Notes under the pieces: model-generated
What the model saw: the letters and a program-made list of their open reading frames with translations, nothing else
What the model was told of the DNA's origin: nothing
The model's database searches: none
Origin: Escherichia coli
Lineage (GTDB): Bacteria; Pseudomonadota; Gammaproteobacteria; Enterobacterales; Enterobacteriaceae
Assembly (NCBI RefSeq): GCF_050920415.1
Contig: NZ_CP169309.1
Direction: 5' to 3' (one strand)
Length of the DNA stretch: 64,000 nucleotides
Translations under genes and position numbers: made by a program
Part shown: piece after piece, positions 38,970 through 54,105 of the stretch
Layout: the number at the start of each line of letters is the position of its first letter
Numbering within the stretch: position 1 is the first letter of the stretch

Positions 38970-38998
38970 ATGATCTATATCAATTTCTCATCTATAAT
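38970..38998 (+). promoter_or_regulatory. Candidate FNR half-site palindrome (ATGATctatATCAA) with adjacent TATAAT -10 hexamer in the focA-pflB upstream promoter region
   Basis: Seen directly: near-consensus TTGAT-N4-ATCAA at 38970-38983 and TATAAT at 38993-38998 in a ~400-bp AT-rich region upstream of focA; the pfl operon is known to be FNR-activated from multiple promoters. The spacing to the -10 is not classical, so the exact assignment is uncertain. Confidence 0.4.
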
Positions 38999-50108: not shown

Positions 50109-52553
50109 TTACACCTTTTCAACCTGAACCAGGTTTGTATGTGACGGATTCCCCTTAGCGAGAGGAGACGGACGTTGAGTGGTCAGTACGTTAATACAAC
50201 CGCCCTTATCGACACGTTTTGCATCCGGGTCATACCAGGCACCTTCACCCAGTGCGACCACACCCGGCATCATTCGTGGCGTCACTTTTGCCTCAATGTG
50301 AACCTCACCACGGTCGTTAAAGATCCTGACCTTATCGCCGTTGTTGATACCGCGTTTTTGTGCATCAAGCGGGTTGATCCACATTTCCTGACGGCAAGCT
50401 GCTTTCAGCACATCAACGTTGCCGTAAGTTGAGTGAACGCGAGATTTGTAGTGGAAGCCAGTAAGCTGCAGCGGATATTGTTTGTTCAGCGGATCCTGAT
50501 AACTTTCAAAGCCCGGCGTGTAGATCGGCAGTGGATCGATCACGTCGCCTTCTGGCAATTCCCAGGTCGCGGCAATGTCAGCAAGCGCCTGCGAATAAAT
50601 CTCAATTTTACCCGATGGCGTGGTCAGTGGATTTGCCTGCGGATCTTCACGGAAGGCTTTATAAGCAACGTGATGCCCTTGTGGGTCGCGCTTTTTAAAG
50701 ATCCCCTGCTTGCGGAACTCTTCAAACGTTGGCAGTTCAGGAATCGCTTCCCGCGACTGGGCATACAGATGCCGCATCCACTCTTCCTGGGTACGGCCTT
50801 CGGTGAACTGCTGCTCGACGCCAAGACGTTTTGCCAGTTCACTGGTCATCTCATAGATGGTCTTACATTCAAAGCGCGGTTTAATCACCTGGTCGTTGAA
50901 AATCACATAAGACATATTCCCGCAGGATGCATCCAGCGCAAAGTCCATCTGTTCGGAAGCAGTGCAGTCAGGCAGCAGGATGTCAGCATATTTCGCCGAT
51001 GAGGTCATGTGGCAGTCGATAACCACAATCAGCTCGCACTTCTTATCATCCTGGAGGATTTCATGAGTACGGTTGATTTCAGAATGCTGGTTAATCAGGC
51101 AGTTACCGGCATAGTTCCAGATCATTTTGATCGGCACATCAAGCTTATCTTTCCCGCGCACCCCATCACGCAGCGCTGTCATTTCCGGGCCACGTTCAAT
51201 GGCATCGGTCCACATAAACATCGAAATGCTGGTCTGGATCGGGTTTTCGAGGGTCGGCATACGGACAAAAGGTAAGCTGTATGAACCTTCACGCGCGCCG
51301 CTGTTGCCCCCGTTAATACCAACGTTACCGGTCAGAATCGCCAGCATTGAGATAGCACGGGTTGCGATTTCACCGTTAGCGTGACGCTGCGGCCCCCATC
51401 CCTGACTGATAAACGCGGGTTTAGTACTGCCGATCTCACGTGCCAGTTTGACGATTTTGTCTGCCGGAACACCGGTAATTTGCGAGGCCCATTCCGGTGT
51501 TTTGGCCACGCCATCTGGCCCTTCCCCCAGAATATAAGCTTTATAGTGACCATTTTTCGGTGCACTGGCTGGCAGGGTTTTCTCGTCGTAGCCAACGCAA
51601 TATTTATCGAGGAATTCCTGATCAACCAGATTTTCGCTGATCATGACGTACGCCAGACCATTAACCAGTGCGGCATCTGTTCCCGGACGAATGGGGATCC
51701 ACTCATCTTCACGCCCTGCACCGGTGTCGGTATAGCGCGGATCGATAATGATCATACGAGCGTTGGATTTCTGACGAGCCTGCTCAAGGTAATAAGTCAC
51801 CCCACCACCGCTCATTCGCGTTTCGCCAGGGTTATTACCAAACAGTACCACCAGCTTACTGTTTTCAATATCTGACGGGCTATTACCATCCGCCCAGCCG
51901 CCGTAGGTATAGTTCAAACCTTCCGCAATTTGCGCGGAAGAGTAGTCACCGTAATGGTTCAGATAACCGCCGCAGCAGTTCATCAGGCGAGCGACCAGGG
52001 TATTTCCCGGCGGCCAGGAGCGGGTCATGGTGCCGCCCAGCGTACCGGTACCATAGTTCAGATAGATAGACTCGTTGCCGTACTCTTTGATCAGACGCTG
52101 CATGTTCGTGGCGATAATGTCGTAGGCTTCTTCCCAGCTAATGCGCTCGAATTTGCCTTCGCCGCGCGCCCCAACTCGTTTCATCGGATATTTCAGGCGG
52201 TCAGGGTTATAAACGCGGCGACGCATGGAACGCCCACGCAGGCAGGCGCGTACCTGGTGCAGCCCGTCGTAATTATCATCGCCGGTATTGTCTGTTTCGA
52301 CATATTTGATTTCACCGTCCACTACGTGCATACGTAGCGGGCAGCGGCTACCACAGTTAACTGTACAGGCGCTCCAGATAACCTTTTCGTCTGACTTTGC
52401 CGGAAGGGCACTATCAACAGCGTGCGCAATCCGACTAAAAGGTAAGGTTAATGCGCTGCTGGCCATTGCCAGGCCGCCGATCGCTGTCGTTTTTACCAAA
52501 CCACGGCGACTCACCTCAGCAGCCAATACCGCATCAGGGATTTTCGTTTTCAT
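50109..52553 (-). CDS. dmsA: DMSO reductase catalytic subunit (molybdopterin guanine dinucleotide enzyme), Tat-exported
   Basis: 814-aa ORF; twin-arginine signal (SRRGLVKTTAIGGLAMASSALTLPFSRIAHA); N-terminal Cys cluster CTVNCGSRCPLR. Confidence 0.95.
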   Translation of the reverse strand: MKTKIPDAVLAAEVSRRGLVKTTAIGGLAMASSALTLPFSRIAHAVDSALPAKSDEKVIWSACTVNCGSRCPLRMHVVDGEIKYVETDNTGDDNYDGLHQVRACLRGRSMRRRVYNPDRLKYPMKRVGARGEGKFERISWEEAYDIIATNMQRLIKEYGNESIYLNYGTGTLGGTMTRSWPPGNTLVARLMNCCGGYLNHYGDYSSAQIAEGLNYTYGGWADGNSPSDIENSKLVVLFGNNPGETRMSGGGVTYYLEQARQKSNARMIIIDPRYTDTGAGREDEWIPIRPGTDAALVNGLAYVMISENLVDQEFLDKYCVGYDEKTLPASAPKNGHYKAYILGEGPDGVAKTPEWASQITGVPADKIVKLAREIGSTKPAFISQGWGPQRHANGEIATRAISMLAILTGNVGINGGNSGAREGSYSLPFVRMPTLENPIQTSISMFMWTDAIERGPEMTALRDGVRGKDKLDVPIKMIWNYAGNCLINQHSEINRTHEILQDDKKCELIVVIDCHMTSSAKYADILLPDCTASEQMDFALDASCGNMSYVIFNDQVIKPRFECKTIYEMTSELAKRLGVEQQFTEGRTQEEWMRHLYAQSREAIPELPTFEEFRKQGIFKKRDPQGHHVAYKAFREDPQANPLTTPSGKIEIYSQALADIAATWELPEGDVIDPLPIYTPGFESYQDPLNKQYPLQLTGFHYKSRVHSTYGNVDVLKAACRQEMWINPLDAQKRGINNGDKVRIFNDRGEVHIEAKVTPRMMPGVVALGEGAWYDPDAKRVDKGGCINVLTTQRPSPLAKGNPSHTNLVQVEKV

Positions 52554-52723
52554 AATGGCTCACTCAAGCTTGCTCACGATTGATTCCAGTAACAAACCGT
52601 ATTGTGTAATTATTTCTATAGCAGGTCGCTATATAGGTTTGTATACATCGAATGATTTGAAAATCAAAGAGATAGGCAGATTTTCACTCGAAAGTAGTAT
52701 TACGTGTAAGTGAGGAGTAATTA

Positions 52724-52737
52724 TTGTTCGGTATCAA
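52724..52737 (-). promoter_or_regulatory. Candidate FNR box of the dmsABC promoter (minus-strand TTGATaccgAACAA)
   Basis: Seen directly: TTGTTcggtATCAA on the plus strand, a near-consensus FNR site (TTGAT-N4-ATCAA) in the serS-dmsA intergenic region; the dms operon is known to be FNR-dependent. The distance to the dmsA ATG (~170 bp) implies a long leader. Confidence 0.45.
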
Positions 52738-52745
52738 AGGGAGAC

Positions 52746-52771
52746 AAAAAAAGCGCCCGAAGGCGCTTTTT
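52746..52771 (-). terminator. Candidate rho-independent terminator downstream of serS (symmetric, possibly bidirectional)
   Basis: Seen directly: AAAAAAAGCGCCCGAAGGCGCTTTTTAG, a GC stem flanked by A- and T-runs, just after the serS stop. Confidence 0.7.
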
Positions 52772-52791
52772 AGATTCAGAAAAATTGGGTA

Positions 52792-54105
<1,314 letters not shown>

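Follow-up and report, generated by a model that had tools for sequence, protein, structure and literature searches.

A serS terminator and an FNR-dependent dmsA promoter as adjoining modules in the serS-dmsA spacer of Escherichia coli

The spacer between serS and dmsA raises a question of assignment. An FNR-like palindrome and a G+C-rich hairpin lie close together in it, at some distance from the dmsA start codon, and it has to be decided which gene each of them serves and what the stretch between palindrome and start codon represents. A first-pass annotation, made from the letters of the sequence, had read the palindrome as a near-perfect FNR site about 170 bp upstream of the dmsA ATG and the hairpin as a symmetric terminator of serS that might also insulate dmsA from read-through. 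We followed this up in the window, that is, the whole stretch of 64,000 nucleotides that was analysed, on whose minus strand both genes lie:

54084..52792, minus strand: serS (serine-tRNA ligase), 430 aa, from the ORF list and E. coli annotation; stop codon TAA at 52794..52792
52554-52791, genes on the minus strand: serS-dmsA spacer, 238 bp, from the ORF coordinates
52771..52746, minus strand: serS intrinsic terminator, from its fold and its conservation across enterobacterial sequences
52737..52724, minus strand: FNR box TTGATaccgAACAA, a 9/10 match; centre 52730.5, taken as -41.5 of dmsA P1
52702..52697, minus strand: -10 hexamer TAATAC of dmsA P1, kept in position relative to the FNR box and 0.94 conserved
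52689, minus strand: predicted transcription start of dmsA P1 (G, +/-1 nt), from the box centre minus 41.5
52688..52554, minus strand: predicted 5' untranslated leader of dmsA, about 136 nt counting +1, from the predicted start to the ATG
52553..50109, minus strand: dmsA, 814 aa, with twin-arginine leader MKTKIPDAVLAAEVSRRGLVK..., from the ORF list and annotation

The reading that we consider highly probable, at roughly 93%, is that the region consists of two adjoining, separately conserved modules, the terminator of serS and a class II FNR-dependent promoter, dmsA P1. In this model, a Rho-independent terminator 20 nt past the serS stop would end serS transcripts and keep constitutive transcription out of dmsABC. 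Under anaerobiosis, dimeric [4Fe-4S]-FNR would bind TTGATaccgAACAA at -41.5, replacing a -35 element, and would recruit sigma70 RNA polymerase to the TAATAC -10 hexamer, with transcription starting near 52689. In the presence of nitrate, NarL-phosphate at the heptamer TACTCCT (-30..-24) and at weaker heptamers would repress P1. The leader of about 136 nt, which has no conserved fold, would carry a ModE (molybdate) operator at about +51 in its DNA and, in its RNA, a conserved ribosome-binding block that is a known target of the AdiZ sRNA.

The position given for the palindrome in the first-pass annotation proved exact to the base. Read on the plus strand, the box is TTGTTcggtATCAA (52724-52737), with one mismatch to TTGAT-N4-ATCAA; it is identical in K-12, where it is the published -41.5 site, and its distance to the A of the dmsA ATG is 171 bp from its near edge and 177.5 bp from its centre, in good agreement with the 170 bp first proposed. 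The meaning of the box comes from its context, its conservation and published experiments rather than from the significance of the bare pattern, which has five matches at one mismatch or fewer in the 64-kb window against 2.64 expected, a result that 14 of 100 shuffles equal or exceed. This lack of enrichment favours an explanation in which the palindrome matches by chance and the control of dmsA lies elsewhere, to which we give almost no credence. The box is the only site with two mismatches or fewer inside the spacer; it is present, in the form TTGAY-N4-RRCAA, in 33 of 33 enterobacterial sequences, and in every one of these a -10-like hexamer lies exactly 28 bp from its centre (TAATAC in 24, CAATAC in four, TAATAT in two and nGATAC in three). 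Published ChIP and expression data also contradict a chance match, with a single listed FNR site at -41.5 under the ChIP peak (Myers 2013, PMC3688515). The comparison drew on 33 loci, retrieved with a degenerate pattern for the DmsA twin-arginine motif in reference genomes of Escherichia, Citrobacter, Enterobacter, Lelliottia, Huaxiibacter, Yokenella, Pluralibacter and Salmonella; upstream sequence sufficed for 32 of them to be aligned with the window. As regards class II architecture, the box match is seen in the window itself and the placement at -41.5 follows from homology and spacing only. The identification of the palindrome as the FNR site of the dmsA promoter is supported.

Other candidate sites in the spacer were rejected. 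A sigma70-like TTGTCT-16-AATAAT (52747..52720, minus strand) was found once against 1.1 expected, and its -35 part is not conserved; it overlaps the FNR box and might correspond to a weak FNR-independent start. The sequence TGATTT-TC-AAATCA (52653-52666), considered as a second FNR site, is a poor box match at either spacing and is specific to Escherichia.

Peaks published for K-12 were placed on the window with an offset between U00096.2 and U00096.3 that we take to be about 777 bp. In Table 1 of Myers 2013 (PMC3688515), dmsABC is directly FNR-activated and has one FNR site, its best-scoring position lying at -41.5 relative to the known start. The same study gives a dmsA FNR ChIP-seq peak centre of 940,035, with a second peak at 939,992 in the supplements (U00096.2), a sigma70 peak at 940,050 that rises from 30.8 aerobically to 447.5 anaerobically, and a serS sigma70 peak that is strong in both conditions. 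Its supplementary expression table holds a dmsA RNA ratio of 0.018, which we read as fnr mutant over wild type, an FNR dependence of about 55-fold. The serS sigma70 peak of Myers lies 53 bp before the serS ATG, with which the offset is consistent. In U00096.2 coordinates, under the assumed offset, the box centre falls at 940,004.5 and the predicted dmsA start at about 940,046; this start is 4 bp from the sigma70 peak, and the FNR peak centres are 12 and 30 bp off the box centre and not on the box. In statements quoted from Bearson et al., the dmsA promoter belongs to class II and prefers -41.5, and NarL protects the FNR and RNA polymerase sites. FNR occupancy, the -41.5 assignment and control by FNR, NarL and ModE are thus all published for K-12. 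From the box centre at 52730.5 and the published -41.5 we therefore infer +1 at G52689. The original mapping reportedly put the dmsA start 223 nt upstream of the start codon annotated at that time, and the stretch from 52689 to Met30, an internal codon of dmsA, measures exactly 223 nt, which matches it.

The arrangement of serS terminator and dmsA P1 is already known and already mapped, and the spacer of the window is nearly identical to that of K-12. The K-12 dmsA P1, a class II promoter activated by FNR, repressed by NarL and dependent on ModE and IHF, has the same FNR box, -10 hexamer, NarL heptamer and hairpin arms as the window. In MG1655 the spacer is also 238 bp long (NC_000913.3, 940,721-940,958) and differs by five substitutions; from the hairpin through the -10 hexamer the two sequences differ in the hairpin loop alone, UUCG in the window and UGCG in K-12. 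Another substitution falls in the left half of the ModE palindrome, where CGATGTATA is present in both and the flanking base is A against G (column 174), one lies 3' of the ModE right half, and two are in the early leader. From the sequence, no functional difference from the K-12 promoter is expected. A 438-bp query (52454-52891) found a match in 5425 of the 5426 complete E. coli genomes, and the genes annotated beneath the match are serS and dmsA. Identity to the window over the 438 bp is at least 99% in only five of the 5425, most of which lie at 95-99%, so that the window may belong to a lineage that is sequenced less often. As a reference class II FNR promoter that is present essentially unchanged, the dmsA promoter carries little weight as a discovery here; the check shows that a functional site is recognisable from sequence alone, gives exact coordinates, and settles the choice between leader and signal peptide set out below. 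The narG promoter of E. coli offers a parallel, both being class II FNR promoters at -41.5 that serve an anaerobic respiratory molybdoenzyme operon with nitrate and molybdate inputs. The inputs of narG are NarL, IHF and ModE, with NarL activating from far upstream, whereas the NarL heptamers of dmsA overlap the core promoter and repress.

To account for the distance between the FNR box and the start codon, two alternatives had been offered, a long untranslated leader and a DmsA signal peptide initiated further upstream. The former stands, at about 136 nt. The latter is ruled out by an in-frame TGA at 52562..52560 (-9..-7): the codons that run up to and include the dmsA start read GAG TGA GCC ATT ATG, so that no in-frame start is possible further upstream, and the 45-residue Tat leader of DmsA begins at the annotated ATG. 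Among species the box stands at variable distances from the ATG, with implied leaders of 95-144 nt in the 33 sequences. A structured leader or riboswitch was considered and rejected, as the leader has no significant single-sequence fold (z -1.55), no conserved structure (a consensus fold over 33 sequences of -0.22 kcal/mol) and no Rfam match above noise on the dmsA strand. Within the leader only the two ModE half-sites (0.80 and 0.90 in the 33 sequences) and one further block before the ATG are conserved:

52582..52554, minus strand: conserved block GTGAGCAAGC..GAGTGAGCC, covering the ribosome-binding region and the surroundings of about -22; 0.83 conserved and nearly invariant in 33 sequences

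In Salmonella, the AdiZ sRNA pairs with the dmsA mRNA around -22, with a compensatory mutation G-22C (PMC12746102). In the early leader (+24..+37), TGATTT-TC-AAATCA forms a perfect palindrome that is found in Escherichia only and is imperfect in K-12 (AAATTA); it is adjoined by an IHF-like match with one mismatch (52662-52674, plus strand).

A scan for ModE and NarL sites between 52554 and 52724, suggested in the first-pass annotation, found both:

52719..52713, minus strand: perfect NarL-type heptamer TACTCCT, at -30..-24 of dmsA P1
52650..52627, minus strand: ModE-type operator CGATGTATA-N6-TATATAGCG, centred at about +51 from the predicted start

Further NarL heptamers with one mismatch lie at -10..-4, +11..+17 and +15..+21, and the motif as such is at chance frequency (33 matches against 29.3 expected). 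According to the literature, NarL represses dmsA and leaves a broad footprint across the FNR and RNA polymerase sites. The ModE palindrome, CGATGTATA-caaacc-TATATAGCG, has one mismatch to the pattern CGnTATATA-N6-TATATAnCG, which was drawn from the cross-species alignment and the ModE consensus, and it is unique in the 64 kb at up to three mismatches, with 0.10 expected. Dependence of dmsA on ModE and IHF is cited from McNicholas 1998, and from its sequence the palindrome is probably the published ModE site of dmsA. Its location about 51 bp downstream of the predicted start is an unusual place for a factor that is reported to stimulate expression.

The second module is the hairpin, whose coordinates of 52746-52771 had likewise been given exactly. 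On the minus strand it begins 20 nt past the serS TAA and comprises A5 (52771..52767), GCGCC (52766..52762), the loop UUCG (52761..52758), GGCGC (52757..52753) and U7 (52752..52746); on the plus strand, it reads A7 (52746-52752), GCGCC (52753-52757), CGAA (52758-52761), GGCGC (52762-52766) and T5 (52767-52771). The description of it as symmetric therefore holds only approximately, with A5...U7 on the serS strand and A7...U5 on the opposite one. A G+C-rich stem-loop followed immediately by a U-run, downstream of the serS stop, is what is looked for in an intrinsic terminator. As RNA on the serS strand the hairpin has a folding energy of -15.4 kcal/mol (z = -3.75; one of 200 shuffles was equally good), its 5-bp GC stem being lengthened by A-U pairs. 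A rule-based consensus terminator scan returned no match at the hairpin, probably because its rule asks for more T than remain once the stem has been lengthened by A/T pairs. Across the 33 enterobacterial sequences conservation reaches 0.98-0.99 in the arms and the T7 run and 0.96 in the A-tract, and is 0.65 in the loop; GCGCC-N4-GGCGC followed by T7 occurs in 32 of the 33, with 12 tetraloop variants. Invariant stems around a variable loop are the pattern expected if the structure is kept for its stem, and covariation lends the hairpin no support because the stems never vary. The proposal that the hairpin can terminate serS is thus borne out by its position, its fold and the near-invariance of its stems and T-run under 12 different loops, and we infer its termination efficiency. 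Among the rows listed in the Term-seq tables of Adams 2021, none is a serS 3' end near K-12 9407xx. The UUCG loop of the window, closed by a C-G pair, is an extra-stable tetraloop, and the corresponding loop of K-12 is UGCG.

In its GC stem, tetraloop, U-run and 5' A-run the hairpin resembles those intrinsic terminators with flanking A- and U-tracts that are potentially bidirectional; it differs from them in that serS and dmsA are co-directional, with no convergent gene, and in the length of its U-run, 7 on the serS strand against 5 on the other. The question of bidirectionality also arises from a match on the opposite strand:

52644..52778, plus strand: match to Rfam RF02084, STnc130 (candidate sRNA), full length, 138.8 bits against a gathering score of 55

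This match, above the gathering threshold and spanning model positions 1-135, lies antisense to dmsA P1 and to the first 46 nt or so of the leader, and ends at the serS hairpin as read on the plus strand. It is possible to construct from it a reading in which the hairpin is chiefly a bidirectional terminator that also ends an antisense STnc130 RNA (plus strand, 52644..~52771) interfering with dmsA, an RNA that would start inside the ModE operator and cross the dmsA start, the -10 hexamer and the FNR box. In favour of this are the full-length match with its 138.8 bits, a TATATA (52630-52635) that lies 7 nt before an A at 52643 on the plus strand, and the plus-strand hairpin followed by U5, with the A-tract that supplies this U-run 0.96 conserved without a convergent gene. 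Strong terminators that work in one direction also often have conserved A-tracts. At the STnc130 region the consensus scan yields no plus-strand promoter, the -35 region is poor and the plus-strand fold is unremarkable (z -1.32), and the Rfam model itself has no structure beyond the terminator; its conserved blocks are all explained by DNA sites of dmsA (FNR box, -10 and ModE) together with the terminator. STnc130 is, moreover, a computational prediction only: Table S3 of Sittka 2008, which places it between serS and dmsA, gives 0 cDNA reads for each of the two libraries and a Northern result of 'nd' despite a probe, and Barquist 2013 still terms it 'putative'. Given the coincidence of its conserved blocks with DNA sites and its lack of detection in Salmonella, we treat the match as spacer homology that does not count as evidence for an sRNA, and we give low weight to the idea that STnc130 is a real sRNA. 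A chiefly bidirectional terminator is on these grounds very unlikely, as is an antisense RNA that takes the course described. What the comparison with RF02084 establishes is homologous sequence opposite dmsA, whereas the family rests on prediction without experimental detection and membership by sequence is silent on RNA production; the family may simply model conserved DNA sites and the serS terminator.

A further idea, likewise very unlikely, is that, with a two-way terminator, ModE at about +51 might stimulate dmsA by silencing an antisense promoter inside its own operator and not in the manner of a classical activator. The STnc130 transcript from that promoter would, unless silenced, meet dmsA P1 head-on, pass through it and end at the serS hairpin. 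If true, this would explain both an 'activator' site downstream of the start and a conserved 5' A-tract without a convergent gene. We retain the reading of the hairpin as the terminator of serS, as set out above.

It had further been suggested that the hairpin may insulate dmsA from read-through. In the published data, dmsA RNA in an fnr mutant is 1.8% of wild type despite the strong serS sigma70 peak; as dmsA RNA is at about 2% without FNR while the serS peak is strong in both conditions, serS read-through therefore contributes little. This is indirect support, and makes it plausible that the hairpin shields dmsA from read-through.

In 351 of the 5426 complete E. coli genomes, a P2/P88-like prophage lies between serS and dmsA, exactly at the hairpin, and the same insertion is found in the E. 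albertii type strain NBRC 107761. The prophage junctions have a 22-bp core in common, AAAGCGCCTGCGGGCGCTTTTT, with the hairpin serving as attB; the terminator is therefore duplicated at both prophage ends. The ogr/D end of the prophage adjoins serS and its integrase adjoins dmsA, so that in lysogens one copy of the hairpin follows serS and the other separates the FNR box from the phage integrase gene, whose direction is towards dmsA. This natural experiment points the same way as insulation of dmsA by the hairpin. The use of the hairpin as attB, the ModE operator and the opposite-strand STnc130 match had all been missed in the first reading of the sequence, and they lend the present check a modest use for annotation, namely a downstream ModE operator, an unvalidated Rfam sRNA family with its conservation accounted for by DNA sites, and prophage integration that rebuilds the terminator hairpin.

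The close packing of activator site and terminator, singled out at the start as worth mapping, is real, with a gap of 8 nt (gtctccct) in the window; the arrangement, as stated above, is one that has already been mapped. Among the enterobacterial sequences, terminator and FNR box are separated by 8 bp in 24 cases, by 9 bp in one and by 11 bp in seven, and in Pluralibacter the dmsA promoter stands behind a different upstream sequence that holds only TTTT; the terminator and promoter modules are therefore separable. It could be argued that the tight packing is itself functional, with the T7 run of the terminator (-63..-57) doubling as an A/T-rich docking site for the alpha-CTD of RNA polymerase, the domain that touches the upstream FNR subunit at class II promoters. 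Activating region 1 of FNR is the part that contacts the alpha-CTD. The title of Lamberg and Kiley 2000 states that activation of dmsA requires this region, conservation of the T-run reaches 0.99 at the gaps just given, and lysogens retain a copy of the hairpin beside the dmsA promoter. However, a change from 8 to 11 bp amounts to a rotation of about 100 degrees around the helix, which speaks against strict alpha-CTD contact, Pluralibacter has its dmsA promoter behind only TTTT, and termination accounts in full for the conserved T-run. We regard a docking function as unlikely, and continue to view the spacer as a terminator and a promoter that adjoin.

Elsewhere in the window, another FNR box with one mismatch, ATGATctatATCAA (38970-38983, plus strand), precedes the focA GTG (39044) by about 60 bp, and the published focA-pflB FNR ChIP peak maps no more than about 15 bp from it; two of the five FNR-like matches in the window hence belong to known FNR promoters.
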